Virus record (IMG/VR): IMGVR_UViG_638275431_000001
Span: 19,196-83,195 of that record
Reading direction: 5' to 3' (one strand)
Source: a virus
Lineage: Duplodnaviria > Heunggongvirae > Uroviricota > Caudoviricetes > Straboviridae
DNA length: 64,000 nucleotides
Positions 1 to 49,617 of the stretch are shown here, piece by piece (the first letter of the stretch is position 1; each line of letters opens with the position of its first letter). The translations under genes were made by a program, and so were the position numbers. Below the pieces are notes generated by a model. The model had not been told where the DNA came from. It did no database searches and was given only the letters and a program-made list of their open reading frames with translations.

Positions 1-898
1 ATATCCATAAACTTCAAAACATCGGCTTCTACGACAGGCGGAATTTGCGTTCCTGACGGCCACGCAAAACACGCTTCATTGAATGGATTGCGATCACGAA
101 GAGGAATAACCATTACCTTTTCGCCTTCAACAATCTCTGGAATTGATTGGTCAGTTTTTGCAATCCGGTTATATGCAAGGGCTCCTTTCACATGATATGG
201 AGCTCCTTTAATTGGATATCCTGCCGAATCCGCGTTTTTGGCGATATTATTCGCAGAAGACACTGCGGCAATCTCTTGATAATCGATCGTTTTGAATTCA
301 TTCTTGAATTGAATGAAATAATTTTGCAAAGAAGATTCACCTTCTTGCAGCAACCGACGAATTGACTCTTTTAGCGATTTTTGACAAGCCAAAGGAGTGG
401 ATGATCGTTGAGTTTCCAAACCCATGATTTTAAGATGCGGTTCTGCGTATCGAGTGCCTTCCATGTCGTAGACATTTAGTGCATATCTTTTCTTACCAGT
501 CCAAAACCCGCCAATCCCATCCGAACCAAGTGGAGCTCCAAATATGGCCTCACGATCCATTAACAACAAATGGTGATCATTATTCATATATTTTTCAAGT
601 TCTTTATAGGACTCGTCAATATATGGTTCAAGCCTCTTTTGACCCAAGTTGTCCAAAAAGTCAATCAAGTGATTGGTATCTTTGAATTTTTCAATTCCTA
701 CTTTATTGACAACTGCTTCCATGTTGAGATACACCGAGTCAGTATCAATATAACACACATAATCAACATTAGTTGTTTTGACGAGATTGTTGATATATTC
801 GTTCAGTTTACGCTCAATCCACCGAATAGCCAATTGACCGTAAGTTGTAATAGCTTCAGCATTTCGCAAATCGTAGAATCGGAAGAAGTTGTTACCCA
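1..898 (-). CDS. 43: DNA polymerase gp43B, 3' exon (partial; continues past the window start). Translation GNNFFRFYDLRNAEAITTYGQLAIRWIERKLNEYINN...YIDTDSVYL...KKRYALNVYDMEG...EPHLKIMGLETQ matches T4 gp43 residues ~560 onward
   Basis: Manual translation of the minus strand from 896 downward; the T4 gp43 DTDS motif C region is present. The ORF finder lists no ATG-initiated ORF here because the exon has no start codon and is fed by splicing. Confidence 0.8.
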
Positions 899-1245
899 CA
901 TGTTATTCGCCTAGGGTCGTTAATCCTAGACCGCGGATTATGCTTCACAGCATTAACTCGCAGCTATATGTTGCCATATATGTTTAGACTATATTATATA
1001 CCTTTTCGGTATCCCGGCGCTTCCACTCACTTGAGTGTACTCTACTCGGTTCAACATATGTTGCCTTTCGATAGTCGTTGCACCTTCTTGTTAGCCCTGC
1101 TTTGGAGGCTTTGGTGTTATTACTCGACAAACCATTTCTGGTAACACCTTTTACATCGCGTTCATACTAACAAGCTTGGCTCAGGATTGTCTCATTGAGA
1201 TTTCCCCTGAGTTCACCGGGTTTAACGTGCGCCTGGGTTAGTTTA
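899..1245 (-). mobile_element. ORF-less group I intron inside 43B (~347 nt)
   Basis: No ORF in any frame. P7-like pairing cgACTAtcg...aTATAGTCtaaac resembles the R/S elements of T4 td-type introns. A P1 helix can form between the exon end GUGCGU and an internal guide GGCGCAC, giving a U-G at the 5' splice site. The intron ends in G (...aacatG). The predicted splice restores ...SLYGAL|GNNFFRFYDL in frame. Confidence 0.7.
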
Positions 1246-1414
1246 ACGCACCATAAAGCGAGTTGATCAAAATTTTGCGATTAAGTTGATTTGTGTTGCG
1301 CTTTTGTTCTTCTTTTTCACAAGACACAATTACTTTTTGAAGTTCGTCATTTGACAGAGTATTCAGGTATTCAAGTTCAGCGTCATTAAAATCACGAAAT
1401 AATTCAAGTTCCAT
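1246..1414 (-). CDS. 43: DNA polymerase gp43B 5' exon (MELELFRDFNDAELEYLNTLSNDELQKVIVSCEKEEQKRNTNQLNRKILINSLYGAL, motif A region). An in-frame ATG at 1438 overlaps the HEG 3' end. The ATG at 1414 has RBS AAGGA
   Basis: Aligns to T4 gp43 VERYVKF...ANTNQLNRKILINSLYGALG. A stop codon follows LYGAL(N) at the intron boundary. Confidence 0.75.
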
Positions 1415-1416
1415 TG

Positions 1417-2223
1417 TTAATCCTTCTTTTGCTTGCATTTATCAAAATGCCAACGTTTCATCGCGTGCGAGACACCTTCTTTCAAACAATGTGGGCATTG
1501 TATCATAACCCGTGGCAATTTATTCCAACGTGCTTTTGCTGATGCTGATAGCAATTCCTTTGTTTCGCGCGACAATGTAACACCTAGACGTGACATAATA
1601 AAACTCGTGCTGCTTCGGCCACGCTCAGCTTGCTTAAGTCGCATCTCGGGTGTCCATGCGTCAGATAATGCCTTTTTATGTGTTTCTTTAAATTTAATGC
1701 CTTTCAAAACAGAGTCGTTTTGTTCGTAAAATTGTCGTAATGACATTTTGCGTTTTTCTATCGTTTCTGCTGAATCCTTTGAACCAATCCGAGCGGCCGA
1801 AGCTTTTTTGAAATTTTCTATTGACGATTTGCGACAGCGCTCACTAGATTTGCGCGACTCACTGACTGACTTTGAATGTTTCTTTTTATCATTCGCTGAA
1901 CAATAACGCATCCAATTATTATCACCCTTTGTATCAATGTGAGACCAGCCTCCCTTTCCGCCAATAGCCATGTTATACGTTTCGGGCATATCAACAAAAT
2001 AGGCATCAACGATTTCCGATTCAACGAAATATGCTAACTCTTCGCAATCAAATTCCGCTAAAATTTCTCGATCAAAATTTGAAATACCATATTTCGTGAT
2101 AGCATGTCGTATAGCACGGCCACTGCCCATATACGGATCAGTTTCAATGTTATCAGATTTGTGAACGCCGACATAGTATCGGCCGTTCAGCTTGTTTGTT
2201 ACTTTATAAAGATACCACATCAT
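1417..2223 (-). CDS. Free-standing GIY-YIG homing endonuclease (seg-like), inserted between the 43A and 43B cistrons
   Basis: N-terminal YLYKVTNKLNGRYYVGVH...GSGRAIRHAIT...NMAIGGKGG GIY-YIG module; basic C-terminal DNA-binding region; RBS GAGGAG 5 nt upstream. Confidence 0.8.
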   Translation of the reverse strand: MMWYLYKVTNKLNGRYYVGVHKSDNIETDPYMGSGRAIRHAITKYGISNFDREILAEFDCEELAYFVESEIVDAYFVDMPETYNMAIGGKGGWSHIDTKGDNNWMRYCSANDKKKHSKSVSESRKSSERCRKSSIENFKKASAARIGSKDSAETIEKRKMSLRQFYEQNDSVLKGIKFKETHKKALSDAWTPEMRLKQAERGRSSTSFIMSRLGVTLSRETKELLSASAKARWNKLPRVMIQCPHCLKEGVSHAMKRWHFDKCKQKKD

Positions 2224-2231
2224 TTCTCCTC

Positions 2232-2253
2232 GGGGTTATTTTATCATAACCCC
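2232..2253 (-). promoter_or_regulatory. Intercistronic untranslated hairpin (ggggtta..taacccc) followed by RBS GAGGAG, between 43A and the HEG
   Basis: Perfect 6-7 bp inverted repeat with a 10-nt loop seen in the sequence, placed between the 43A stop and the HEG start. Confidence 0.5.
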
Positions 2254-2264
2254 GTCTTCTGTAA

Positions 2265-3761
2265 TCAATGGTCTGTTTTAATTCCGCGAGAAGCCAGAAT
2301 TTTCTTAATTGCTTCCTGATTTCGAATTGCAGCTAGCATCATCTTTTTCTCGGATTTACGTTGGAGAAATACTTTTTCAGTTTCAGTTGGCAGTACCCCG
2401 GTGACTCCTTTCTTATACATCATACCGTTCGGTGCGCAACTGAATTTATCTGAGGGTTTAGGAGCAACGCCAGATATATAGTCTTCAATCCTTGCAGGAG
2501 AAAACATCCCTGCGATCATCTCAGGACTAATGTTCAACAATCTGAGGATAGATGGATACAAAGATGTTAAGTCAAAGCTCATGCCATATCGATACGCACC
2601 AGGAACAGGTTCTTTTACGTATGCTCCAGGGAAACTTTGCTTTGGACTAGCTTTCATCATTGGAATAACTACATTTTTCTCAACAAGCGAATTGAAAATG
2701 ATAGAATCCCAAACTTTGATAGTTCCTAGTACATCCTCGAAACGAATTTTCGCGTAATAGCAAAGAGACAGAATAAGATCAATAAAGCATCGACGGCCAT
2801 CGATCAACAGAATAATATCCGTATCTCGCACGCAGTAATCGACATATCGCTGGTGATCTGCTGCTCGGAACTTATTAATTGGGCCATCATATTCCAATTT
2901 GTCTGCTTTAACTTCACGGTATCCGACATTGCCCAATTTATAGTCAGGCATAACAGTGAAACTGAACTTTTTGAAAACATCCATATAATCCATTAGTGCA
3001 ACACCATGGATACGATAGATCGTTTTTTCACCGTACATATTTGTAATTGTTTTTGAGCTGATCTTGCCGTATGGGCTTAATTGGTTAGCTGCACTTTCAC
3101 CCAAGATGTTGATAATTCGAGTGATAATGTACGGAATATCGAAACCTTCGCTGTTCCAACCAAACACCAAATCAGGGGTAGATGATTTCCATAGTTGAAT
3201 ATAGTTGAGAAGAAGATCAATTTCAGTGTCGAATGGCATGTAAACGACATTGTCAAGAATATATTTGTCCAAAACAGACTTAGATGGGTCCCAATGGCCT
3301 ACATCTTTAACAAGGTCAAAAATGTAATATGTCTTTTTGCCCTCGTGCAAACGCACATGGGAAATCATATCAATTTCATATTTTGCAAATTTGGGATCAG
3401 GGAATTCTGGAGCTGTTACTTCGATATCGACTACATCAATAATGACATTGTCACGATCAAAATCAATAACTCCGCGATAATTATCGGAGATGTAGGAAAT
3501 GCAATAGTCGTCCATACCCATGGCGTCTTGGCCAATTTCGGCCATTCGTTTCTGCCATTGCTTTGCTTCCCAAATGTTTTCATGCTTCTTCGGTACGCAA
3601 AAACGTCCATAGATGTCTTTGTGCTTTGTCTCTACACCTGGGGCGGCATGATGAAAGAGTGTCGGCTGATAGTTCGTTTTTCGCGATAGTCTTACACCGT
3701 CTTTAACGTAACGCTCAAAAACGGTATTTCCAATAACTTCGATGTTCGTGTAATGCTGCAT
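2265..3761 (-). CDS. 43: DNA polymerase gp43A (N-terminal exonuclease domain plus part of the polymerase domain, 498 aa). It ends where 43B picks up
   Basis: Collinear with T4 gp43 residues 1-~500 (FDIEV, YMPFD, HQRYVDYCVRD, SFPGA, FDLTSLYPSI, KKILASRG). Confidence 0.9.
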   Translation of the reverse strand: MQHYTNIEVIGNTVFERYVKDGVRLSRKTNYQPTLFHHAAPGVETKHKDIYGRFCVPKKHENIWEAKQWQKRMAEIGQDAMGMDDYCISYISDNYRGVIDFDRDNVIIDVVDIEVTAPEFPDPKFAKYEIDMISHVRLHEGKKTYYIFDLVKDVGHWDPSKSVLDKYILDNVVYMPFDTEIDLLLNYIQLWKSSTPDLVFGWNSEGFDIPYIITRIINILGESAANQLSPYGKISSKTITNMYGEKTIYRIHGVALMDYMDVFKKFSFTVMPDYKLGNVGYREVKADKLEYDGPINKFRAADHQRYVDYCVRDTDIILLIDGRRCFIDLILSLCYYAKIRFEDVLGTIKVWDSIIFNSLVEKNVVIPMMKASPKQSFPGAYVKEPVPGAYRYGMSFDLTSLYPSILRLLNISPEMIAGMFSPARIEDYISGVAPKPSDKFSCAPNGMMYKKGVTGVLPTETEKVFLQRKSEKKMMLAAIRNQEAIKKILASRGIKTDH

Positions 3762-11365: not shown

Positions 11366-12805
11366 TCATGTAGAGGCCTTCTTTTTGGCTTTTTCACGTG
11401 TTTTGATTATCCAGTCCTGGACAATTTCCTGGTCTTCCGCAGAATTGATATCGAGTATTCGCCCAAGTTTTCTCAGCAGATACTTGTATTTGAACCTTTC
11501 TTTCTCGGTCATTTGGTATAGCGCTTGATACGACTCTCGATTTCTTTTTACCTGTTTGTGATTTTCGACTGAATTACCATCACATATCTCAGCGTGCGGC
11601 AAATATCTCAACATGTATTGAGCTAATTTCATATCAGGAACATACAGATTGATGGGTTTTAGCGAATGTTCATTTCGGATATCACATCTTGCGCAAAGTT
11701 GAAATGCGGGTTCAAGATACTTTGAAACTATGTACGCGTCAACCATTGCACTTTCATCTAAGCCTACCGACTTTGCGAGTTCTTTCAAAATCGGAACTTG
11801 CCAAGGTGCCGGATTATACGAAAACATCACAACCACATTAGTATAATCCGAATAGTTGTTTAGACCATGCGGGTTATAAGGAACTTCCGTCCCCTTTGGC
11901 ATTCTTGGCCGATAAGAGTTTCGAGTGTAAATGAAATCGCCATTTACGATTGTATCGAGAGTATTTTCGATGCGAGTGTAATTCGAAATCCCATCTACTT
12001 CCTTGTCGGCTTTGTAACGAGACCAATCATCATCAAACATTACATGAATTTTTACACGAGCAGTTTTAGGATAAACTCGGAAAGCCAACCGCCCAACTAG
12101 CGGAGACTCTTCAAATTCCCATCCGTTAAAATGCTTCATAATCATGCCAGTAAAAGTCTGCTCGAAATTTGCAGAACAGACAGTTATTGACTTGAATTTT
12201 GCCCAATCATCATTTGACGCATCATTCACGTAATAACATTGCGTCACACCTCCCTCTACCGACAGCCTGACAGGGACACCTGTCAGCAGTGCTTTATACA
12301 ATGGAAAAAGTGTTGAATAAATGTCATCGTTTCCTCTAAAGCCATCTATTGCCATTTTTTGGACCGATTTTCGATGTTCATCACGTAACTCTAGTAGTCC
12401 AGTTTCATCTATTTTGCACAATTCGAGTATATGGCTTTCAACTGATGTTGTGAAAGTAAATCGTTCGAAGCTTGTTAATTCTGGAACCTCATCGATATAA
12501 AGATAAAATCTTTTTACAGCATCAATATCTCGAAGGCCCATTAAAGCCGCGTGCGTTATAAAAATCACATCAAATTCTTCGGATGCTTTGATAACTGCTT
12601 CGTGTACCGACTTTTGGCCTTGGCGGTTATCGGTGTCAACTAACTCGCCTTCTCCGCCCAGGCCGACATAGTATTCGAAAGATTGTTTCGATAATTGTCT
12701 AGATATGCTGGCTATAATTGCCTTTTCATTATTTTCAACAATATGGTTTAGAATAGCTGCAGTTTTTCCTGCAGCTGGTATAGCGGAGAGAGTGTAAAGT
12801 TTCAC
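11366..12805 (-). CDS. P-loop NTPase of unknown family (479 aa); Walker A AIPAAGKT, Walker B LYIDEV
   Basis: Motifs seen; no confident family assignment. Its stop overlaps the start of the next ORF. Confidence 0.5.
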   Translation of the reverse strand: MKLYTLSAIPAAGKTAAILNHIVENNEKAIIASISRQLSKQSFEYYVGLGGEGELVDTDNRQGQKSVHEAVIKASEEFDVIFITHAALMGLRDIDAVKRFYLYIDEVPELTSFERFTFTTSVESHILELCKIDETGLLELRDEHRKSVQKMAIDGFRGNDDIYSTLFPLYKALLTGVPVRLSVEGGVTQCYYVNDASNDDWAKFKSITVCSANFEQTFTGMIMKHFNGWEFEESPLVGRLAFRVYPKTARVKIHVMFDDDWSRYKADKEVDGISNYTRIENTLDTIVNGDFIYTRNSYRPRMPKGTEVPYNPHGLNNYSDYTNVVVMFSYNPAPWQVPILKELAKSVGLDESAMVDAYIVSKYLEPAFQLCARCDIRNEHSLKPINLYVPDMKLAQYMLRYLPHAEICDGNSVENHKQVKRNRESYQALYQMTEKERFKYKYLLRKLGRILDINSAEDQEIVQDWIIKTREKAKKKAST

Positions 12806-13377
12806 AGATCCAAAAATTCCTTAAGCCGCTCAATGTCAAACTGATTGTAAAGATTATAACACTCCACACCATGACGCATTGCAAGCTGCCAAGCAGTATT
12901 TGTTCCTCCAGAAACTCCGTTATCCGTTGGAACCGAATAACACACCAAGAATTCTGAAGGTGTTTTCAGATTATAACCCAGAACTTGATACACATTTCGA
13001 GTATGAAGTGCAAGAGCACCACCAGTCAATTTACCTCCTTTGGCGTAAATTGGGTGGACCGTTTTCATGATTTGCTCGGCGTCCCATTTATTGGCGTCTG
13101 GTAAAATGAGGTCGTGACGAGTGTGTTTTGGTTTGAACCGGCCGTTAAACCGTGCCCATGGAACATAAACATCAAACTCTACCGGGCTGTCGATATCCAA
13201 ACTGTCGGCAACTGCTAGAAAACCTTCTTCAAAAGCAGTATCCGCACCATCAGCACCGCCTGAACGTCCGGTATATCCTCGAACAGCAGCAACAGCTGCA
13301 ATATCCTTCATCAAACGACAAATATGATCGGGAGTCTCACGACTCCCGATTCCAGTGTAATAACCCTTGAAATTCAT
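12802..13377 (-). CDS. DprA/Smf-like (SLOG superfamily) Rossmann-fold protein
   Basis: YTGIGSRETP...RGYTGRSGGADGADTAFEEGFLA resembles the DprA Rossmann signature G.GSR ... SG.A.G.D..AH. Confidence 0.45.
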   Translation of the reverse strand: MNFKGYYTGIGSRETPDHICRLMKDIAAVAAVRGYTGRSGGADGADTAFEEGFLAVADSLDIDSPVEFDVYVPWARFNGRFKPKHTRHDLILPDANKWDAEQIMKTVHPIYAKGGKLTGGALALHTRNVYQVLGYNLKTPSEFLVCYSVPTDNGVSGGTNTAWQLAMRHGVECYNLYNQFDIERLKEFLDL

Positions 13378-18733: not shown

Positions 18734-19203
18734 TGAATGGCCTTCTTAAATTGCTTTCTGAATTTTTTGACTAAAACAGCTTTTTGATCTTTTTCATCAA
18801 ATTCAAATCCTCGTTCACGTAGTTCTGCCTTCATTTCACTCAAGTTTTTCCGTGAGAAATTTTTGGTCATGTCGGAAACGTAATTCGGGTGTATTGGATT
18901 TTTTGAATGATCTGAATCTACATATTCTAATAGCGATCTCATCCATTGGATGTAATCAACATCCTTTGCCTTTAATCCTGACCGTATAAACTTGTGTTTC
19001 ATTATGCCTTCAAGTAGATTGCATCTACTGCAAAGTAGACCTCGAATCTTTCCGGCATTCGGGCCTTGCAATACGTGATCGTGATCCAAATGCTGTTTAT
19101 TGTATGGACCGTCAAACTCGTTTCCACACAATTTACAACACTTATTTTGTTCTTCAAACAATTTCTGTTTTAATTCATCAGCAGACTTGGAATTTAAGAG
19201 CAT
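18730..19203 (-). CDS. 49: Endonuclease VII gp49 (Holliday-junction resolvase)
   Basis: QNKCCKLCGNEF...HLDHDHVLQGPNAGKIRGLLCSRCNLLEG...RGFEF matches T4 EndoVII. Confidence 0.9.
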   Translation of the reverse strand: MLLNSKSADELKQKLFEEQNKCCKLCGNEFDGPYNKQHLDHDHVLQGPNAGKIRGLLCSRCNLLEGIMKHKFIRSGLKAKDVDYIQWMRSLLEYVDSDHSKNPIHPNYVSDMTKNFSRKNLSEMKAELRERGFEFDEKDQKAVLVKKFRKQFKKAIQ

Positions 19204-20326: not shown

Positions 20327-21808
20327 TTACTTAATTGCAGTGCGCTGGCGGATTTCAGCCAGATTGCTCTTGAATTTTTGACCTTTTTCAGCGTCATAAT
20401 AACGGACGAATGCATCTTTCGACATAAGTTCAACAAAACCGTCTTTGATGCTTACACCGGACAGCATTTGCCCACCTTCAATAGTTCCTTCGGTATAATA
20501 GCGGCCGTCATCCATGACTCGCAGTTTGAGCTGGCCTTTCTTGGAAGCTTTCCATTCAGCCCCTTTCGGGCATTTGAATACGTCTTTCCATACACCATTG
20601 ATTTTGATAGCAGACATTTTCATGGCCCACTTGCAAGTGTCGCGGTTAACCATTTGCAGAAGACCGCCACCCATGCCGAACGCAATATTCTCTGCAGCCC
20701 CAACCCACGAGCTTTTCATAACAGTCAGAACACGGCCGATAACTTCGGGACCGTCGATGCCATCACCTTGAATAATGCGGCAATGCTTATTCAGAACCTT
20801 GTAGCCCTTGCTGTTGGTTTCATAACCGAAGATTTCACCCAGAGTTTCCAGAGCAAAACTGATATTGTCGATCATATCACCACTGTCAGGTCGAGCGATC
20901 AGAGTACCACCCTTGGTGATGACTTCGTCCTTATAGCTCTCGATTTCACGGATTGCCTTCTTGAAATCAGTAGAGTCATCCACAATGGAATATGCACCAA
21001 CACCAAAGAGTTTAACCGAGTTGAGGTAGGCGTCTTTTTCACGATCGGCACCCCAAGAGGTTACAGTGGAGTGCTCGCGGGCTGGTACAGAGATGCCTGC
21101 CATTTCGGCGCCAAACAGTTGTTTTGCGAAATACAGCGACTCGAAAGTGTCAGTACCCATAGAGTTGTACAGATGAGCACAACCGCCGATTGCAGCAGAT
21201 TCACCAGAACTAACGCCGCGAGAACCAAAATCATGTAGTCGGGTCATCAGCACAAAGTGGAACTCAGGACTGCCTACTTCCAGGTCAGAAGTTTCAATCA
21301 GATGGTGACGAATAGATTTGATGCATTCGCGGCTCAGCGTGGCAACAGTAGAAGTGTACCAAACAGCTCGCAAAATGATTGGCTCAAACCAGCCTGCCAA
21401 CCAAACGAACGGTGCTTTAACGCGAGCAGTCAGCACGACGTTCTTGACTGGGACAACAGTGCCTTCGGGAACAGCATCAATTTGGATGGGCAGACAGCCA
21501 TGCTGTTCTTGATATTGGCGGACTGCTTCCCAACCTTCGCGGTTGAATACGTCTTGGCCGAAGTGAGCCTTGCTCATGGCATCCATTTCGTCAATATCAT
21601 CTTTGGTGATGATTTCTGCAAACTTGGTCAGCAGATATTCCACACCACCGATAACGATTTCATCGAATTTGCCGCCACGGGCTTCGATGTAGAAAACTGC
21701 TTCTTCGGTACCTTCAGGCATCTGGTTCCAATGGGTGATTTTGTAAGAATCAGTCATTGCGATCAGCGGGATACCTTTCACACCTGTAGGTTGACGAATC
21801 ATATTCAT
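20327..21808 (-). CDS. nadV: Nicotinamide phosphoribosyltransferase (NAMPT, NadV)
   Basis: 493 aa, type II PRTase/NAMPT family (GGGLLQ..., DSGD motifs), as in Vibrio phage KVP40 NadV. Confidence 0.85.
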   Translation of the reverse strand: MNMIRQPTGVKGIPLIAMTDSYKITHWNQMPEGTEEAVFYIEARGGKFDEIVIGGVEYLLTKFAEIITKDDIDEMDAMSKAHFGQDVFNREGWEAVRQYQEQHGCLPIQIDAVPEGTVVPVKNVVLTARVKAPFVWLAGWFEPIILRAVWYTSTVATLSRECIKSIRHHLIETSDLEVGSPEFHFVLMTRLHDFGSRGVSSGESAAIGGCAHLYNSMGTDTFESLYFAKQLFGAEMAGISVPAREHSTVTSWGADREKDAYLNSVKLFGVGAYSIVDDSTDFKKAIREIESYKDEVITKGGTLIARPDSGDMIDNISFALETLGEIFGYETNSKGYKVLNKHCRIIQGDGIDGPEVIGRVLTVMKSSWVGAAENIAFGMGGGLLQMVNRDTCKWAMKMSAIKINGVWKDVFKCPKGAEWKASKKGQLKLRVMDDGRYYTEGTIEGGQMLSGVSIKDGFVELMSKDAFVRYYDAEKGQKFKSNLAEIRQRTAIK

Positions 21809-25538: not shown

Positions 25539-26597
25539 CTAGATACCAGTGAAGCGCGAAATGATTTCAGCATGATCGTCAAACATACGGGCCCGATTTC
25601 TCTTGTATTCATGCATTGGCATCCAAAATGCTGCTTTTGCATCATCGTCAGCACGAACTTCGGGCAAACTACCATCGTCATTAGGTTGAAGTACGATATA
25701 ATAAGCAACAGTCGGTTTGCAGAACTCTGCCGTTCTCTTCGGGTGATCAAATACTTCGTGCGCTTTTATAGACCCAATGATTTTTTGACGATCGACATCA
25801 ATCCGAACTTCTTCATACAATTCGCGAATTGCGCAATCACGGAAGGTCTCATTGGAATTCTTGTGACCGCCTGGAAGAGCAAGAGCGCCTTTGCCTGGAG
25901 CATGTTTGCGACTAATAACCAGAATATGGTTGTTGCAAGTTACTACGGCATCTGCAGTATTACAGTTGAGAGCATCAGCGTATGGATAATCTTTAAACTT
26001 TGCAAGTTCATTGTCCCACATCGCACGTTCTTCCATCAAACGGTCGCGTATTTCGGAGCCTTCAGTATTCCAAAATTTCAAGAGAAACGACCGCACTGAC
26101 GGGTTGATAGGGAAATCATCATGGATAGCACCGGTTCGAAGAAATTCGTCACGCATTGGGGTATTTGAGATGTCTTTTCCGTGATTCTGAACGCCCATGC
26201 ATTGAATATGTTCCCACCCGAAGGTTTTGATCCAATAAGAATCTTCATCCTTATCGTATGCAATCATCGCCACCCGCTCACCCGGTTGCTCTCGCGCAGC
26301 TTCACGAACTTCTGTTTGCCAGCGATCTTCATTATAGCGGTAGTCAGGAACATTGCCGAAAACAATTCTTGCCTGTTCGCTAGGAGTGAGATTGTTACTC
26401 ATCCATTCTTTGAACATTCTGATTCGAATCGGCGTTGGAAGCGGGTTGATCGTGTTTGGATAACAATGGGATGACCCAAAGACAACAGCAACAGTTTCTG
26501 CAGTTTGAAGTGCTTTATAAATCAGAATTTCGTGCCCGCGGTGGAAAAAGCTGGAAAAGCGGCCAATAACAACAGCACGATCATAATCATAAACCAT
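25539..26597 (-). CDS. natV: Bifunctional NMN adenylyltransferase / Nudix hydrolase (NatV-like)
   Basis: N-terminal (H/T)xGH motif GRFSSFFHRGH; C-terminal Nudix box GGHKNSNETFRDCAIRELYEEVRI. Confidence 0.8.
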   Translation of the reverse strand: MVYDYDRAVVIGRFSSFFHRGHEILIYKALQTAETVAVVFGSSHCYPNTINPLPTPIRIRMFKEWMSNNLTPSEQARIVFGNVPDYRYNEDRWQTEVREAAREQPGERVAMIAYDKDEDSYWIKTFGWEHIQCMGVQNHGKDISNTPMRDEFLRTGAIHDDFPINPSVRSFLLKFWNTEGSEIRDRLMEERAMWDNELAKFKDYPYADALNCNTADAVVTCNNHILVISRKHAPGKGALALPGGHKNSNETFRDCAIRELYEEVRIDVDRQKIIGSIKAHEVFDHPKRTAEFCKPTVAYYIVLQPNDDGSLPEVRADDDAKAAFWMPMHEYKRNRARMFDDHAEIISRFTGI

Positions 26598-31511: not shown

Positions 31512-32435
31512 TTACTTGGAGCGCATATCCATCAGCATTTGGCCATCATAACCGGCGCCGACCACGGTCTGCGGCACACCACCTTGGTATTTGTTGGCGC
31601 GAATCATTTCGACTTCCAGCTGGCGCCATTTGATCATTTCAGGAGTAATGGTTTTCTGCAGCAGAGTGTTAGCTTCGGCTTCTTTACCAGCGGCGTACAG
31701 TTTAGCATCAGCGTCACGTTCGTTAGCAACAGCGTTTTGTTCACGAGCTTCACGTGCAGCTTCGGCGGTCTTAACCTGCTGTTGTGCCACTTTTTCGGCT
31801 TTATCCAGATCCGCTTGGGCTTGGTTTACGGCTTCTTCACGAATTTTGGTTTGCTCAACCTGGTCTTGAATCAGCTTCGGCAGAGTAATTTCTTGCAGGA
31901 ATACTTCGGTTACTTCATAACCAAACGGCTTGGAATAGTCATTGACTTCAGTTTTGATCATGTCTTGCAGCATGGATTGAGTGGTCGCATCGCCAAACAG
32001 ATCTTGTGCTTTCTTGATGTTTTTACCAGATTCGCGAACGGTACTCTCGAATTTCTTCGCGACGTACTTGTCAATGGCCTGGCGTTCGGTACCGCCATTG
32101 ATACGAACCATTTGGGCTTTATCACCGTCGAATCGCAGCATCAAAGTGATATCGACAGAAGTTTTCAGTTTATCTTGAGAAGGAACTTGTACGTTTGAGA
32201 ATTCCATCTTCAGATCACGAGTTGAATAGGTATCAACTGATGCCAACGGATTGATGATGTTCAGGCCGGGCTGCATGATATTTGGGCTAACTTTACCAAG
32301 GAAAGTAGTAGTTGCAACAGAGCCATCATCAACGACGGTGAAAACGTTGGCCGCCAGAAGCAGTACGCCGGCTACACCAGCACCAATCAGAGCATGTTTA
32401 CGAGTGATTTTCGGAGTTTTGTTCATAGTACGCAT
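31512..32435 (-). CDS. SPFH/Band 7 (prohibitin/HflC-like) membrane protein
   Basis: N-terminal TM helix, SPFH core, Ala/Glu-rich coiled coil (AQADLDKAEKVAQQQVKTAEAAREAREQNA). Confidence 0.65.
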   Translation of the reverse strand: MRTMNKTPKITRKHALIGAGVAGVLLLAANVFTVVDDGSVATTTFLGKVSPNIMQPGLNIINPLASVDTYSTRDLKMEFSNVQVPSQDKLKTSVDITLMLRFDGDKAQMVRINGGTERQAIDKYVAKKFESTVRESGKNIKKAQDLFGDATTQSMLQDMIKTEVNDYSKPFGYEVTEVFLQEITLPKLIQDQVEQTKIREEAVNQAQADLDKAEKVAQQQVKTAEAAREAREQNAVANERDADAKLYAAGKEAEANTLLQKTITPEMIKWRQLEVEMIRANKYQGGVPQTVVGAGYDGQMLMDMRSK

Positions 32436-32455
32436 TATATTTCCTTTTGATTGAA

Positions 32456-32719
32456 TTAGGGTTTTGCAGTTACGATGATATAGCTTTCATTGCGATGAGA
32501 TTCGCACCGAATCTCATATCCAAGAGCTCTTAGATAGTCGACGATATCTCTGGTGTAAATTCCAGGGAATTTATCGCCTGCGAAGGTGATTGTAAAAACT
32601 CGTTTGGAAATCATTTCGTCGGCAACGAATTTTCCAACAGGAGCTAATTTGCGTTTCAACTCTTCAGTGGCAAAAGCTTGGGCAAGTTGAACTTGGGCAA
32701 AAACATCAGAACTTTTCAT
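32456..32719 (-). CDS. Hypothetical protein (87 aa)
   Basis: ORF only. Confidence 0.35.
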   Translation of the reverse strand: MKSSDVFAQVQLAQAFATEELKRKLAPVGKFVADEMISKRVFTITFAGDKFPGIYTRDIVDYLRALGYEIRCESHRNESYIIVTAKP

Positions 32720-32792
32720 GATATGTTTCTCATTTTGTTTAACTTGAGGCTATTCTATACGAAACAGCCTCATTGTAAACAACTTTTTGAAA

Positions 32793-33365
32793 TTATTTTG
32801 AAGATTTTCCCATGTTCCAATGTTTGCGACAGACGGAAATGTATTGGTCATTGCCGCCTATTGACACCCGCGGGCCCCAAATTTTTTTACCATGCTCGTC
32901 AATTCGCATTGTCATGGTGGCTTTTTTACCACACCAACAATTTTCTTGTGTTCTACCTTTTCTTCTGCTAAAACGAGAAGCTGGAATGAGGCGGGGAACA
33001 AGAAGCAATTCGATCAGACAGCAATCCGTAACACATGACAGGAATTTCCAAACAATCGACAATATAGCAAGGTGTTTTACTTGATCAATTGTCAGAAATT
33101 GTGCTTCATCAACCAGAACACAGTGATTTCCATTGATTTCACTTTCGCGGTCAATAATAGCCTTTAGACTATCGTCGCGACTGATCATATGTGCTTTTGC
33201 AGAAATGCCGATTCTTGACGAGACTGTTGAGCCGTCCCGCGTATCGACTGCCGGTTTAAGAATGATTGAATTCATTCCGCGTTCTTTGTAATTGAATGCC
33301 ACTTGAAGCAAATGTGAAGATTTACCAGAATTCATTGCAGCATAATGAAAGTGAAGACTCGCCAT
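32793..33365 (-). CDS. tk: Thymidine kinase. The central ~42 codons are out of register with T4 Tk; homologous residues appear in the other two frames
   Basis: YAAMNSGKS, VLVDEAQFL and C-terminal CWCGKKATM match T4 Tk. Frame 2 gives YIVDCLEIPVMCYGLLSD and frame 3 gives LFPASFQLLVLAEEKVEHKKIV, which match T4 RIVDTYNVPVMAYGLRTD and LFEGSKELLAIADKLIELKAV. Confidence 0.8.
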   Translation of the reverse strand: MASLHFHYAAMNSGKSSHLLQVAFNYKERGMNSIILKPAVDTRDGSTVSSRIGISAKAHMISRDDSLKAIIDRESEINGNHCVLVDEAQFLTIDQVKHLAILSIVWKFLSCVTDCCLIELLLVPRLIPASRFSRRKGRTQENCWCGKKATMTMRIDEHGKKIWGPRVSIGGNDQYISVCRKHWNMGKSSK

Positions 33366-33832
33366 TAACTCATCCCATTAATTCGTTTGAAGATTTCATA
33401 ATTGGTGTGATAAAGGTCGTCAGTGACCTCTTCGCCAAACCAGGAAACTGGTTCAAAATTCGCCGCATCATACGGAGTTTTAAACTCGACTTCAGCATAC
33501 ATTTCACCAGTCGACAAAATATCCAACTCAACAGTGTGATATGAATACCCCGTTTTAACAAACCAACGTTCCTTGACGACGCATTTTGGATGACCCGCAT
33601 CAGCATGAATTTTGTTGATTTCTTCGTGACTTATATCAGTTTCGATTTCTTCGCGCACAAGGCCTTGTCCAGTTTTCACAGTTTTAACGAAAACTTCAGG
33701 GAGGCCTTTTTCCATCACGCTACGATATCGAGCACCTTCGTGATAAAACTGAGCAATTTGCTGTTTTCGAAATGTCACAGACGGCTGAAATGGGAACACT
33801 GGAACAATCCACTTACGTTCGATTTCAAGCAT
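33365..33832 (-). CDS. CYTH-domain protein (CyaB/thiamine-triphosphatase-like triphosphate tunnel metalloenzyme)
   Basis: N-terminal EIERKW signature plus acidic EEIETD...HEE; 155 aa. Confidence 0.55.
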   Translation of the reverse strand: MLEIERKWIVPVFPFQPSVTFRKQQIAQFYHEGARYRSVMEKGLPEVFVKTVKTGQGLVREEIETDISHEEINKIHADAGHPKCVVKERWFVKTGYSYHTVELDILSTGEMYAEVEFKTPYDAANFEPVSWFGEEVTDDLYHTNYEIFKRINGMS

Positions 33833-34160
33833 TCGGTTTTCTCCGATATTGGATGACTTTTACTTCAACCGGAAATACTTCGTCCAGCAAAATTTCATCG
33901 CCGTCATTTTCGTATGGTGTTTCATCTTGCAGTTCGGTTGCACCTTCAGAATAATCAGTTTCGAAATACCGAGTCGTCTCATCGTCAGGACGAGTTACCG
34001 CCAAAATCTGTCGGTAAACCGTAGACCATCGACGCTCGTCATATACTTCTTTTTCAACGCTTTCAATGACAAAAGGCTCAGTAAAGCCCCAATCACCAAT
34101 TTCAACAGTGATTTTGTCTTCGTATGTCATTTCACGCAAAAGATCGGTTGGAAATTTCAT
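33825..34160 (-). CDS. Hypothetical acidic protein (111 aa)
   Basis: ORF only. Confidence 0.35.
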   Translation of the reverse strand: MKFPTDLLREMTYEDKITVEIGDWGFTEPFVIESVEKEVYDERRWSTVYRQILAVTRPDDETTRYFETDYSEGATELQDETPYENDGDEILLDEVFPVEVKVIQYRRKPNA

Positions 34161-34163
34161 TTT

Positions 34164-34364
34164 TTACTCCACTATAACAGTTTGACCGATAAACAGCTGG
34201 CCATTGTGCTTAATTTCATAGTTGACTTTAACACAATCACCAACTTCGCGATATGAGTGGATAATAACGCCGTCCAGGTCAGGACCAAAAAGATGAATGA
34301 AAGCAGCTTCAAACACTTTTTGCATAACCGGGCCGCACTGTTGCCATTTACCTTTAACTTCCAT
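34164..34364 (-). CDS. Hypothetical protein (66 aa)
   Basis: ORF only. Confidence 0.3.
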   Translation of the reverse strand: MEVKGKWQQCGPVMQKVFEAAFIHLFGPDLDGVIIHSYREVGDCVKVNYEIKHNGQLFIGQTVIVE

Positions 34365-34839
34365 CGAATTCTACCACCGTGATATCGATATTTGGGGTAA
34401 CTTCATTGATGATTGCTTCAATTTTGTCCCAATCGCCTCGGGCAAGACCGGCACCTATTTTAGGAATACACATAGTTGGGCGTAAACCAAAATCAACAGT
34501 CTCTTGACACAGTGTATTAACTTCCGCAAAACAAGCTCTAACGGCGTCGTAAGAAAGCATATCGGCAGGATCCCAAAATGTTGCTTGGGTATACATATTG
34601 AAGGCGACCCCATGCTGATCACCGCAGGCGATTGGAGAACCACTGATTGTACCCAACTTTTTACGGTCACCTTCAGTGGTCAATTGATCAAGCTGCCACA
34701 ACTCAGGAAGGCGATTCCGGACTTCTTTTGCAATTCCAGAACCCATTCGGTTAAAAATGTTACAACCGTGAGCAAACATTTGATATTTGCCGGACAAGAA
34801 AAGGCTAATTGCGTTGCCGTGTACATATTCAACAATCAT
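34354..34839 (-). CDS. Macro-domain protein (ADP-ribose binding/processing)
   Basis: FAHGCNIFNRMGSGIAKEV resembles the macro motif VNAAN..L..GGGV..AI; 161 aa. Confidence 0.5.
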   Translation of the reverse strand: MIVEYVHGNAISLFLSGKYQMFAHGCNIFNRMGSGIAKEVRNRLPELWQLDQLTTEGDRKKLGTISGSPIACGDQHGVAFNMYTQATFWDPADMLSYDAVRACFAEVNTLCQETVDFGLRPTMCIPKIGAGLARGDWDKIEAIINEVTPNIDITVVEFDGS

Positions 34840-35276
34840 AGAGTGAATTCTCCTTTGCCGTAAGGTGTAGTAATTGACATAACTTTGCCCATCGGGTTGA
34901 AATCGGGATTATCTTTACGCCAAATAACGATAGCAGAACCAGTCCGAACGTAGTAAACGTTTTGAACAACCCCGTCGAAGCTAATCATAACTCGCTCAGA
35001 CCTAGACAAAATACTGTTGTCAGATCGTGCAGAGTCAATTATCCAATAATCGCTATTGAAAATAATCCCAAGGCAATCATCATGTTTCTGTGTGTATTGC
35101 ATATCACATGAAACCGACAGAGCAGATTCATACTTGCCATTTTCATCGGTGAATTCTTTGATTACTCCAGATTTTTCAGGAAACCAGAACATTTCGTTCA
35201 TATTCGCTGTTACAGGAGCGGCTGCGCCGCAGCCATAAATTGATAGTGCTAAAATAGCTGCTATTGACTTTTTCAT
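34836..35276 (-). CDS. Lipoprotein (lipobox LSIYGC)
   Basis: Signal peptide plus lipobox. Confidence 0.45.
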   Translation of the reverse strand: MKKSIAAILALSIYGCGAAAPVTANMNEMFWFPEKSGVIKEFTDENGKYESALSVSCDMQYTQKHDDCLGIIFNSDYWIIDSARSDNSILSRSERVMISFDGVVQNVYYVRTGSAIVIWRKDNPDFNPMGKVMSITTPYGKGEFTL

Positions 35277-35494
35277 ATTTCACCCTCGTATGCGAGAACA
35301 TCATTGAAATCATAGCTCTGGAAGCCGACACCACTTGAATGAGTCAAGCTATAAACAGTCATTTCCATTTCAGAATCCCAGAGAATGTCAAAACCAAACG
35401 TATTTCCATTGGTGTAATGGATACGATTGAATTCTGTATCTACGGCGTCCACGTATGGACGCCCAGCAATAACAAAAAGATGATATTGATGCAT
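35273..35494 (-). CDS. Hypothetical protein (73 aa)
   Basis: ORF only. Confidence 0.3.
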   Translation of the reverse strand: MHQYHLFVIAGRPYVDAVDTEFNRIHYTNGNTFGFDILWDSEMEMTVYSLTHSSGVGFQSYDFNDVLAYEGEI

Positions 35495-35500
35495 TTTACC

Positions 35501-35752
35501 TCACAGCCAGTATTCCCGAATGAATCTTTCAGTTTCTATGCGGACTTCAGACGAGTTAAAATCGGTATGAAGCATAATTTGGGAATCGTGGGAATCACGA
35601 GTAATCAAAAACTCGTATCCAATAGATTCTTCTGGCATAGCTACGTTCATATCGTAAAGCGAATCGAAAAATCGGCAACCTTCCAATTTAGCACGATCAA
35701 CTTCAACAGTCACAATAACCGCGATACCGAACTTATTGATGATGAATTCCAT
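35501..35752 (-). CDS. Hypothetical protein (83 aa)
   Basis: ORF only. Confidence 0.3.
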   Translation of the reverse strand: MEFIINKFGIAVIVTVEVDRAKLEGCRFFDSLYDMNVAMPEESIGYEFLITRDSHDSQIMLHTDFNSSEVRIETERFIREYWL

Positions 35753-36282
35753 AACTTACTCCACATTTGATTGGTTTGTTTAACTGAGGTTATAGTATCC
35801 CATAGCCTCAAAAATGTAAACATTTGTTGGTGAATAAAGTCCATTCGCTTAAGCTTTTGATTTTTTGTCAAAACACGATCAGCATATCTCAAACCAGTGT
35901 GGTAATTCCAACCTGCATTGTATGAAGCTAAAGCAATTCGAATGTTACCTTTTCGAACCTTGAGCCAGTACGAGAGTTCATCCATAGCCCATTCGGCAGA
36001 AGAACTTTTACGCTCTAAATCCTTTTTCAGATACCAGTGTCTGAACGGAATTCCTCTATTGTCGAGTTTAGATGTAACCGTTGTGTAAAGATTTTGAAAC
36101 ATCCCATATGCATGATGACCCTTTTTATTTCTGCCAGTGTTTATTCCAGCTGATGATTCTTCCCATGCGATAGCGGCGAATAATGTGCCAAGATACCGAT
36201 CGTTCCAGAAATTCGGATTATTGACATCTCGCAATTCTCCCATCAAGTCATAAGCTTTCCCATAGTTGTAAGCATACGACAA
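35710..36282 (-). CDS. Lytic transglycosylase (SLT domain). The N-terminus is unclear: the ORF-finder start is TTG, and protein-like sequence continues upstream without an ATG
   Basis: AIAWEESSAG...HAYGMFQ SLT catalytic motif; the upstream in-frame peptide IVFATHVYAGPGPVQDF lacks a start; an out-of-frame ATG with RBS GGAGGGG is nearby. Confidence 0.5.
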   Translation of the reverse strand: MSYAYNYGKAYDLMGELRDVNNPNFWNDRYLGTLFAAIAWEESSAGINTGRNKKGHHAYGMFQNLYTTVTSKLDNRGIPFRHWYLKKDLERKSSSAEWAMDELSYWLKVRKGNIRIALASYNAGWNYHTGLRYADRVLTKNQKLKRMDFIHQQMFTFLRLWDTITSVKQTNQMWSKLWNSSSISSVSRLL

Positions 36283-42875: not shown

Positions 42876-43298
42876 TTAGAGATTTGAACAAAATTCTTGC
42901 TCGGTCAATACAGTTTCACTCTTTTTGCTTTTTCCCCATTTGAGGGGAGTAAATGAGGAATTATGGGTAGCAAGAATCGCTCTCTGGAAACCAGCGTTCT
43001 TTGACATCTCATCGAATGCACGATTTATCAGTTCGGTATAAGCTTCATGCTGTCGATGTATCGGTTGGCCTTTCCAATAAAGGAGTTGATCTCTCCACCA
43101 ATTCTTTTTCTTTCCCTTGAATTTGGCAGTTTTTCCGACCAATGTACAAACATGCTCTTGCATTTCTGGAGATTTGAACTTCAGCGATTGCAGAAATCCT
43201 TCCATAGATGCGCATCGGATGCCATCTATGAAAAACTCGTGCGGGGCAAAGTTGCTGAGGGCACATGACGGCCATGCCGAACCAGATCCGATTTCCAT
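42876..43298 (-). CDS. NADAR-domain protein (YbiA/DUF1768 family; N-glycosidase acting on ADP-ribose conjugates)
   Basis: LSNFAPHEFFIDGIRCASMEGFLQSLKF ... AILATHNSSF match the DUF1768/NADAR signature (SNF..F...G..F.S.EH.FQA.KF). Confidence 0.6.
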   Translation of the reverse strand: MEIGSGSAWPSCALSNFAPHEFFIDGIRCASMEGFLQSLKFKSPEMQEHVCTLVGKTAKFKGKKKNWWRDQLLYWKGQPIHRQHEAYTELINRAFDEMSKNAGFQRAILATHNSSFTPLKWGKSKKSETVLTEQEFCSNL

Positions 43299-49179: not shown

Positions 49180-49617
49180 TTAATCTTGGCGTAATTCTTC
49201 CACATATTCATGTGTTGTTACGATAGGGAAGTCATATGATCCTTCATACTTAAGAGGACCAATGTCTTTTGCAATCGTGATGTGAGGAATGTATTCGTCA
49301 AAATCATGTGCTGACGAGCCAAGGATCTGGCCGTACGCGTGTCGTTTTTGCATGTACGGAGAATCATATGCCAGAACAAGAAAATTCTTTTCTGGAGTTT
49401 CAAAAATTCTCAGATAGCAACTGTCAGCCAAATGTTCAGGCGAATCATCTGGGATAAATGGAACATATACTCTGCTATAAACGATAGTAGAATGAAGTTC
49501 GTCTCGAGGAACAGGATTTGGCAATCTCAGTTCTTCTTGAATACGCTGGATAAAATCCAGCGTTTCATCACTAAATTTACAAGCAACGTATGTTCCTACG
49601 AAGCTGTCTGTAAACAT
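49180..49617 (-). CDS. 57B: 2H phosphoesterase at the position of T4 57B (Acb1, anti-CBASS cyclic-oligonucleotide phosphodiesterase)
   Basis: Two H-x-[TS]-x motifs (HSTIVYS, HITIAK); 145 aa; immediately upstream of 57A and gene 1, as in T4. Confidence 0.6.
   Translation of the reverse strand: MFTDSFVGTYVACKFSDETLDFIQRIQEELRLPNPVPRDELHSTIVYSRVYVPFIPDDSPEHLADSCYLRIFETPEKNFLVLAYDSPYMQKRHAYGQILGSSAHDFDEYIPHITIAKDIGPLKYEGSYDFPIVTTHEYVEELRQD

Follow-up and report, generated by a model that had tools for sequence, protein, structure and literature searches.

Tk.4 and a CYTH protein upstream of tk in Aeromonas phage 25: probably two unrelated accessory enzymes

The stretch of DNA analyzed here (the window; 64,000 nucleotides, IMG/VR virus record IMGVR_UViG_638275431_000001, positions 19,196 to 83,195) belongs to Aeromonas phage 25 (NC_008208 / DQ529280, bases 19196-83195), a T4-like phage of the genus Tulanevirus; over the compared part, 32400-35800, the identity is 100%, and a window coordinate equals the phage 25 record coordinate minus 19195. 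On its minus strand, upstream of the thymidine kinase gene tk, lie tk.4 (34354-34839), coding for a macrodomain protein of 161 amino acids, and ORF090c (33365-33832), coding for a CYTH protein of 155 amino acids that begins with MLEIERKW. An earlier note on this DNA had seen in the two, together with genes elsewhere in the window, a toolkit against NAD-, ADP-ribose- and cyclic-nucleotide-based host immunity; the underlying observation is correct and the biology is mostly known. We propose instead, with a probability of about 0.6 for this reading as a whole, that they are two unrelated accessory enzymes, Tk.4 being AdfM and the CYTH protein a hydrolase of the NeuTTM type, which came to be adjacent by insertion. 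The locus would then represent the variable early-gene region of T4-like phages between regB/vs.1 and tk, carrying both. Open reading frames (ORFs), folds, catalytic residues, orthology, gene order and distribution were computed; from these we infer substrates, roles in vivo and co-transcription.

Tk.4 as an ortholog of AdfM

The earlier note had suggested Pfam searches (CYTH PF01928, Macro PF01661) as a check, with the failure of domain searches counting against its claim. Direct scans returned no PF01928 match for ORF090c and no PF01661 match for Tk.4 at E≤1, NCBIfam gave nothing usable for either protein, and PADLOC gave no match for ORF090c and a weak DarG match for Tk.4 (E 0.0016). Since these direct scans gave little, family profiles and structure models were used, and they supported the respective fold for both proteins. 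Taken literally, the empty direct scans would have refuted that claim, an outcome that is reversed by the more sensitive tests.

The macro fold of Tk.4 was confirmed by phmmer, by a family profile and by an AlphaFold2 model compared with Foldseek. In the PDB, phmmer retrieved BT1257 and SCO6735 (E 2e-6 to 1e-5), and the family profile (110 sequences) matched BT1257 (1.6e-23), SCO6735 (2.7e-20), Mycobacterium tuberculosis DarG (2.7e-14) and TARG1 (5.7e-14). The model displays the three-layer alpha/beta/alpha macro fold with a predicted local distance difference test (pLDDT) score of 94.6 and a predicted template modelling score of 0.90, and its Foldseek matches, BT1257 (2FG1), TARG1, Poa1p and DarG, were found at E-values of 4e-10 to 6e-9 and template modelling (TM) scores of 0.66-0.79. 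Moreover, PF01661 is present in many Tk.4 homologs at 40-48% identity. Residues N27, G35, G63, N81, Q85, P126, I128, G131, L132 and G135 are invariant in 110 homologs, and the glycine-rich ADP-ribose phosphate-binding loops MGSGIA (32-37) and KIGAGLARG (127-135), invariant or nearly so in the same number of homologs, line up with the corresponding loops in BT1257, SCO6735, DarG and TARG1. The column of the catalytic lysine, Lys80 in DarG and Lys84 in TARG1, holds the invariant Gln85 in Tk.4, and this residue aligns with Gln85 of SCO6735, as expected for the SCO6735/BT1257 subtype. Gln85 is essential in SCO6735, which strips thymidine-linked ADP-ribose from DNA and neutralises DarT (PMC9411070). 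As judged from sequence comparison and the model, Tk.4 is an ALC1-like macrodomain of the SCO6735/BT1257 type within the TARG1/DarG/SCO6735 class.

The best PDB sequence and profile matches to Tk.4, SCO6735 of Streptomyces coelicolor and BT1257 of Bacteroides (5E3B, 2FG1), have the glutamine in common with it, whereas they are encoded by bacterial chromosomal genes and show only about 25% identity to the phage protein; Val25 of SCO6735, proposed to be catalytically important, corresponds to Gly25 in Tk.4. DarG of DarTG2 (5M3E, 5M3I) has the same macrodomain class and fold as Tk.4 and differs by its DarT-binding domain and by Lys80 in place of the glutamine. Identification of Tk.4 as a DarG antitoxin was considered and rejected: the protein consists of the macrodomain only, without the C-terminal DarT-binding domain, no darT-like neighbour is annotated, and the score against the NCBIfam DarG equivalog was 11 bits at a cut-off of 250.

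Tk.4 of phage 25 and its counterpart in the T4-type phage ime09 share 40.7% identity over the full length (E 1e-40), and the family was found in 2917 phage records. The GenBank record of phage 25 has named tk.4 and noted its A1pp/Macro motif since 2006, and the A1pp motif in tk.4 orthologs was reported in the 2006 comparison of T4-like phages (PMC1524935). A transposon screen of phage T4 singled out tk.4 as the one gene required on a DarTG2 host, and a clean T4 tk.4 knockout was sensitised to DarTG2; the gene was renamed adfM, for anti-DarT factor Macrodomain (bioRxiv 10.1101/2025.11.20.689424). T4 Tk.4/AdfM has the same size as the phage 25 protein, is encoded upstream of tk and downstream of regB/vs.1, and carries the invariant glutamine in an LYTQ/MYTQ motif. 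The two phages differ in host genus and in gene content: the places of vs, tk.3 and tk.2 in T4 are taken in phage 25 by a lipoprotein gene, ORF092c, ORF091c and the CYTH gene. On account of the full-length sequence match and the conserved order regB-vs.1-...-tk.4-...-tk, phage 25 Tk.4 is best read as an AdfM ortholog, and protection from DarTG2 is predicted for it from T4. The earlier note counted the macrodomain among the activities aimed at ADP-ribose-based immunity. The class of the protein and the role of its T4 ortholog, which acts against the ADP-ribosylation of DNA by DarT2, speak against soluble ADP-ribose or glycocyclic ADP-ribose (gcADPR) signals as the target; the idea was right in spirit, with DNA-linked ADP-ribose, already published for T4, as the probable target.

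Following this, we propose that Tk.4 most likely binds, via its two glycine-rich loops, the ADP-ribose attached to thymidine of single-stranded phage DNA, and probably hydrolyses the ribose-thymine glycosidic bond by a Gln-dependent mechanism of the SCO6735 type, in which Gln85 would position the distal ribose and no catalytic lysine would take part. In this way, the modification introduced by a presumed host DarT2 would be reversed and replication could resume. If this role holds true, the two enzymes known to erase ADP-ribosylation from DNA, AdfM and AdfN, are both present in Aeromonas phage 25, as part of the common inheritance of T4-like phages. The second is represented by gene 30.3 (42876-43298, minus strand), whose product matches PF08010 Phage_30_3 with E 6.8e-47 and belongs to the NADAR/AdfN family; T4 gp30.3 is AdfN, a NADAR enzyme countering DarTG1 (PMC11825919). 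The presence of both would suggest that phages of this group have been under pressure from DarTG-type defence in hosts far removed from E. coli as well. With respect to annotation, tk.4 would be better labelled AdfM-like than 'phosphatase'.

The CYTH protein and its genomic neighbourhoods

The CYTH fold proposed for ORF090c (phrog_6660) was likewise borne out by phmmer, a family profile and an AlphaFold2 model compared with Foldseek. A phmmer search of the PDB matched NeuTTM (2FBL/3TYP), a triphosphate tunnel metalloenzyme (TTM) and the inorganic triphosphatase of Nitrosomonas europaea, over the full length with E 6e-7, and the profile of eight family members did so with E 2.5e-32. The model, built on 68 sequences (pLDDT 94.8), shows an eight-stranded barrel tunnel and a C-terminal helix (144-151); Foldseek ranked NeuTTM 2FBL first (E 2e-8), followed by AtTTM3, a Sulfolobus TTM, thiamine triphosphatases and class IV cyclases. 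The model reaches a TM score of only about 0.6-0.66 against NeuTTM, perhaps because the latter was crystallised in an open form. In the homologs from CF8 and pAEv1810, PF01928 was detected with E 7e-4 to 9e-4, under the Pfam cut-off, and it is carried by almost all of the ORF090c matches listed in an alignment-based word-index search. When 1.84 billion representatives were searched with the ORF090c profile, 11,247 proteins matched at E≤1e-3; alignment-based searches were needed, as the single-sequence word-index search with the CYTH protein found 8 proteins only.

Fourteen residues are invariant in 68 CYTH homologs, namely E3, E5, K7, Y30, K53, R60, E61, E62, K87, R89, E102, D104, E114 and E116. 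The ExExK motif spans residues 3-7 (E3-I-E5-R-K7) in the first strand, the opposed basic (K53, R60, K87, R89) and acidic tunnel residues are present, including the ExE metal site, and the invariant pair Y30/K53 aligns with Tyr28/Lys52, the proposed catalytic dyad of NeuTTM (PMC3440374). Class IV adenylyl cyclases can be told from other members of the superfamily by the motif HFxxxxExExK, and thiamine triphosphatases by the tryptophan of WxRxR (PMC8233210). In ORF090c, only Met-Leu precede ExExK, so that there is no HF motif, and the strand corresponding to WxRxR reads G33-A-R35-Y-R37, without the tryptophan, in an alignment that is ambiguous there. Because both features are missing, and with its catalytic residues all present, ORF090c is classified from sequence and model as a phosphohydrolase-type TTM nearest to the NeuTTM/CthTTM group, characterised members of which hydrolyse inorganic triphosphate and, less specifically, nucleoside triphosphates (NTPs).

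NeuTTM (2FBL, 3TYP) resembles ORF090c in its length, its single CYTH domain, the ExExK motif, the Tyr/Lys dyad and the ExE site, whereas the identity is only about 27%, ORF090c is phage-encoded and the alignment near the RxR strand is ambiguous. CyaB of Aeromonas hydrophila and Yersinia pestis belongs to the same CYTH superfamily, and the host genus is the source of its founding member; ORF090c differs from CyaB in the absence of the HF motif, gives no significant sequence match to it and places it at a low structural rank. In phage 65, the homolog is annotated as 'similar to bacterial adenylate cyclases', a remark that is unsupported for this CYTH clade; some homologs are already annotated as 'CYTH-like phosphatase'. 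For ORF090c and its orthologs, CYTH/TTM phosphohydrolase, not adenylyl cyclase, would be the appropriate annotation. Most likely, the enzyme uses two metal ions to hydrolyse the terminal phosphoanhydride of a linear triphosphate, be it inorganic triphosphate or the gamma-phosphate of a (deoxy)nucleoside triphosphate. Nothing was found that links it to NAD, ADP-ribose or cyclic-nucleotide immunity as had been claimed, and its sequence would place it with NeuTTM among enzymes of linear triphosphates.

Searches with tblastn found the CYTH gene in 78 phage records, 69 of which are Aeromonas phages and 2 of which are near-identical records of Stenotrophomonas phage IME13; an IMG/VR scan with a single peptide pattern yielded 8 loci only. 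In a distance tree without support values, the CYTH proteins of Aeromonas phages group in a single clade, separate from those of bacteria and other phages, and this clade includes sequences from Chaoshanvirus, Ferozepurvirus and Ludhianavirus, genera classified outside Straboviridae. The gene lies between tk.4 and tk in phages 25, IME13, avDM4, 44RR and 60AhydR15PP. The order in phages 25 and 44RR is regB-vs.1-...-tk.4-two small ORFs-CYTH-tk, and in T4-type phages (ime09 was compared) it is regB-vs.1-vs-tk.4-tk.3-tk.2-tk. Thus, the CYTH gene would adjoin tk.4 because it was inserted in a variable slot of the conserved tk.4 ... tk order, and a functional pairing with Tk.4 would not be implied.

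Co-localisation was counted by local hidden Markov model searches at 18 CYTH loci with flanks of 4-8 kb: Tk.4 was found at 2 of these, both from one lineage, thymidine kinase at 3 and thymidylate synthase at 2. In phage CF8 (Chaoshanvirus), the CYTH gene follows thymidylate synthase after 10 nucleotides, with dihydrofolate reductase nearby, and in unrelated viral contigs the gene next to CYTH codes for a dUTPase (L023), a MazG-nucleotidyltransferase fusion (L024) or RecU (L020), while a DHH/DHHA1 phosphoesterase gene adjoins it in L019 and in Bacillus phage Nachito. These recurrent neighbours favour a function in nucleotide or triphosphate pool metabolism over the degradation of immune signals, and the enzyme may accordingly serve the nucleotide/triphosphate pool of the phage. 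Contrary to this, the earlier note had excluded nucleotide housekeeping, a view that is difficult to maintain with tk, thymidylate synthase, dUTPase, MazG and the DHH phosphoesterase as neighbours of CYTH elsewhere. For jumbo phages, CYTH and MazG triphosphatases have been proposed to clear unwanted NTPs, as dUTPase does (Iyer et al. 2021, PMC7824862); this proposal matches the neighbourhoods observed here, although phage 25 is not a jumbo phage.

Two further arrangements around CYTH genes were observed. In Herelleviridae-type phages, the CYTH/TTM gene overlaps the DHH/DHHA1 gene and lies directly after a sigma factor gene (Nachito L011:3842-5321; L019:7980-9456), an arrangement that suggests a conserved pair of phosphohydrolases. 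A gene for a protein of about 130 amino acids (phrog_16660) precedes and overlaps CYTH in CC2, phage 65 and the metagenomic T4-like contigs L009 and L010 (L003:3610-4002, L004:3616-3999, L009:99-494, L010:81-476), and its product may be a conserved CYTH partner in CC2/phage 65-type lineages. Within the phage 25 window this protein is without a homolog, and a relationship to ORF091c was rejected at an hhalign probability of 0.1%.

In gp097 of phage D3 (L014:3182-4696), the CYTH domain occupies residues 273-428, the middle part of a fusion protein of 504 amino acids. The C-terminal part (phrog_3715) has a match to WYL (PF13280, E 0.0011) below the Pfam cut-off, the N-terminal part corresponds to phrog_30474, and PDB searches with either part found nothing. 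The fusion may hint at the regulation of the CYTH clade or at its substrate. To our knowledge, a substrate has yet to be assigned to any phage triphosphate tunnel enzyme, and a CYTH clade of one host genus offers a tractable place to find one; the residual interest of the locus lies in the substrate of this Aeromonas-phage clade.

Points against the proposed roles and competing explanations

Several points weigh against the reading of the two proteins as AdfM and a NeuTTM-type enzyme of the triphosphate pool. For Tk.4, a DarTG2 system is presumed in Aeromonas hosts, and the enzymatic activity of T4 AdfM on DNA was itself deduced by the authors of the preprint (bioRxiv 10.1101/2025.11.20.689424). 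With respect to the CYTH protein, enzymes of the NeuTTM type act mainly on inorganic triphosphate, the biological role of which is obscure (PMC3440374). In the T4-like phages CC2 and 65, moreover, CYTH lies among small ORFs of unknown function with neither tk nor tk.4 within 4 kb, and there, as in several metagenomic contigs, no nucleotide-metabolism gene is in view. Neighbourhood is also weak evidence, because T4-like early regions mix nucleotide-metabolism and anti-defence genes, and a single CYTH clade across Aeromonas-phage genera, including those outside Straboviridae, is typical of host-specific counter-defence genes, too.

This last point leads to the alternative that survives best, which we nevertheless regard as unlikely: the CYTH protein might be a host-genus-specific takeover or counter-defence enzyme that destroys a triphosphate-bearing molecule of Aeromonas, such as a modified or chain-terminating NTP, an alarmone of the pppGpp/pppApp type, or inorganic triphosphate released by dNTP triphosphohydrolase defences. 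It is in line with the sharing of one clade by Aeromonas phages of Straboviridae, Chaoshanvirus, Ferozepurvirus and Ludhianavirus and its near absence from phages of other hosts, with the position in an early accessory region beside a known anti-defence gene, and with the fusion in D3 to two other domains, one of them weakly WYL-like. However, the neighbourhoods favour nucleotide metabolism; the clade was drawn from a distance tree that has no support values, the WYL match falls under the Pfam cut-off, and the host restriction looks stronger than it is because Aeromonas T4-like phages are densely sampled. A more specific form, to which we give slightly less credence still, is that of an accessory enzyme spread horizontally among unrelated Aeromonas phages (and fused in Ludhianavirus) that neutralises a triphosphate-bearing molecule of immunity or stress physiology. 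If a counter-defence function were true, this would be the first triphosphate tunnel enzyme with such a role.

A different view of Tk.4 is that it serves as a housekeeping ADP-ribose-1''-phosphate phosphatase or O-acetyl-ADP-ribose deacetylase, or reverses the marks of the phage's own ADP-ribosyltransferases. The GenBank and PHROG labels ('phosphatase' or A1pp) and the presence of the ADP-ribose-1''-phosphatase Poa1p among the fold matches agree with it, as does the activity of SCO6735 and TARG1 on protein-linked ADP-ribose as well (PMC9411070). Poa1p is, however, outranked in the family profile by BT1257 and SCO6735 and then by DarG and TARG1, and the sole known genetic phenotype of the T4 ortholog is sensitivity to DarTG2, which makes this view improbable in our opinion.

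We find it distinctly harder to believe, as the earlier note had it, that CYTH and Macro form a coordinated, co-transcribed pair that degrades NAD-, ADP-ribose- and cyclic-nucleotide signals, as of Thoeris and CBASS, in one toolkit with NadV/NatV, NADAR and the 2H phosphoesterase. The tight packing on the same strand, the real anti-defence function of the T4 ortholog of the macrodomain protein, and the membership of the other named genes in known counter-defence families speak for such a pair. Against it, the macrodomain class and T4 genetics point to DNA-linked ADP-ribose and DarT2, not to soluble signals, and TTMs act on linear triphosphates, no characterised member acting on ADP-ribose or cyclic nucleotides. 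Moreover, the linkage of CYTH to Tk.4 occurs in one phage lineage only, where the ancestral T4 order of tk.4 and tk with an insertion in the variable slot explains it, and CYTH has no PADLOC match.

Least credible are two enzymatic alternatives for the CYTH protein. One, which we consider very improbable, is an RNA 5'-triphosphatase that removes the gamma-phosphate of primary transcripts and, for instance, speeds the decay of host mRNA. Cet1-type RNA triphosphatases do belong to the TTM superfamily, the gene of the mRNA endonuclease RegB lies in the same region, and the C-terminal domain of the D3 homolog is weakly similar to WYL domains, of which the characterised ones bind single-stranded nucleic acids; yet Cet1-like proteins constitute a separate Pfam family, Cet1 stands far down the Foldseek list, and the WYL match is below threshold. 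The other, a class IV (CyaB-like) adenylyl cyclase raising cAMP to reprogram the host, has in its favour the common superfamily, the phage 65 annotation and the origin of the founding CyaB in A. hydrophila, of the host genus (PMC3440374), and can practically be dismissed, as the two residues before ExExK make HFxxxxExExK impossible, the family profile that reached NeuTTM at 2.5e-32 hit no class IV cyclase chain at E≤1, and in Foldseek the E-values of such structures trail that of NeuTTM by about five orders of magnitude.

The gene string around tk and other genes of the window

The minus-strand string of CYTH, two small ORFs, Macro and tk was recovered from the ORF listing as the earlier note had described it. 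Upstream of tk.4 lies ORF094c (34836-35276), coding for a predicted lipoprotein of 146 amino acids (phrog_9490, E 1e-89; 'putative membrane lipoprotein' in the record), whose stop overlaps the tk.4 start by 4 nucleotides. The tk.4 stop is in turn overlapped by 11 nucleotides by the start of ORF092c (34164-34364, minus strand, 66 amino acids), a member of the conserved phage family phrog_1873 (E 8e-23) without a Pfam, NCBIfam or PADLOC match and without similarity to T4 tk.3 or tk.2. It is followed by ORF091c (33825-34160, minus strand, 111 amino acids) of the conserved phage family phrog_6343 (E 2e-44), in whose alignment the motif RW...Y..G.TE.QDE.P.EN is conserved; in phage CC2 and contig L010, homologs of ORF091c lie downstream of the CYTH gene at a distance of 2-3 genes. 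The CYTH stop overlaps the start of tk (32793-33365, minus strand) by 1 nucleotide. Between vs.1 and tk, consecutive genes are spaced by -43, 6, -4, -4, -11, 3, -8 and -1 nucleotides, and a purine-rich Shine-Dalgarno-like motif is found at every start; on the grounds of this tight packing and these motifs, co-transcription of the string is plausible. The first sizeable gap, of 73 nucleotides with a promoter-like site inside, comes after tk. A terminator-like site inside ORF091c (34090-34073) was attributed to chance, as it has only 3 G-C pairs and shuffled sequences gave more sites than the scan.

The thymidine kinase gene shows an irregularity. Its Pfam TK match (E 5e-29) is split in two stretches: the reading frame is open as deposited, yet codons about 100-142 are out of frame. 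Compared to IME13 and avDM4, the gene lacks one nucleotide at each of three separate sites, near window positions 33067, 33014 and 32940, or 3 nucleotides in total, and the conserved core IPVMCYGLLSD...LFPAS..LLVLAE is found in the two other frames. Either the 2006 record contains sequencing errors or the gene is inactivated in phage 25.

Genes for NadV/NatV, NADAR and a 2H phosphoesterase, noted before elsewhere in the window, were all found, each on the minus strand. In addition to gene 30.3 described above, these are nadV (20327-21808), with the NAMPT domains PF04095 (E 5e-39) and PF18127 (E 6e-26); a gene for a NatV-like nicotinamide mononucleotide (NMN) adenylyltransferase/Nudix protein (25539-26597), with Nudix at residues 217-348 (E 4e-18) and an N-terminal similarity to NMN adenylyltransferases (NMNAT) that is given by the record annotation only; and a gene named 57B in the record (49180-49617), coding for a 2H phosphodiesterase of an anti-CBASS family (PF23474 Acb1, E 1e-38). 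NadV and the NMNAT-Nudix protein are the first and second components of NARP2 (bioRxiv 10.1101/2024.02.11.579819). Hence, the idea of a distributed toolkit holds insofar as several known counter-defence families are encoded in the window; such genes are commonly dispersed among the accessory genes of T4-like phages and do not amount to a newly recognised system, and the CYTH protein cannot at present be placed among them.

Further observations concern genes beyond the string. The start of vs.1 (35710-36282) is ambiguous between TTG at 36282, which gives the longest ORF (190 amino acids), and ATG at 36243 as in the record (177 amino acids), and its 3' end overlaps the next gene, p097, by 43 nucleotides. 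Just downstream of the tk cluster, ORF087c (31512-32435), a 'lipoprotein' in the record, codes for an SPFH/Band 7 protein (PF01145, E 2e-16) and is kept in 44RR. ORF050c (12802-13377), a 'DprA-like DNA recombination-mediator protein', overlaps ORF049c (11366-12805; 479 amino acids), neither of them having a Pfam match at E≤0.01. At window positions 1-3761, a homing endonuclease ORF separates the two parts, 43A and 43B, of the DNA polymerase gene 43, as already given in the GenBank record.

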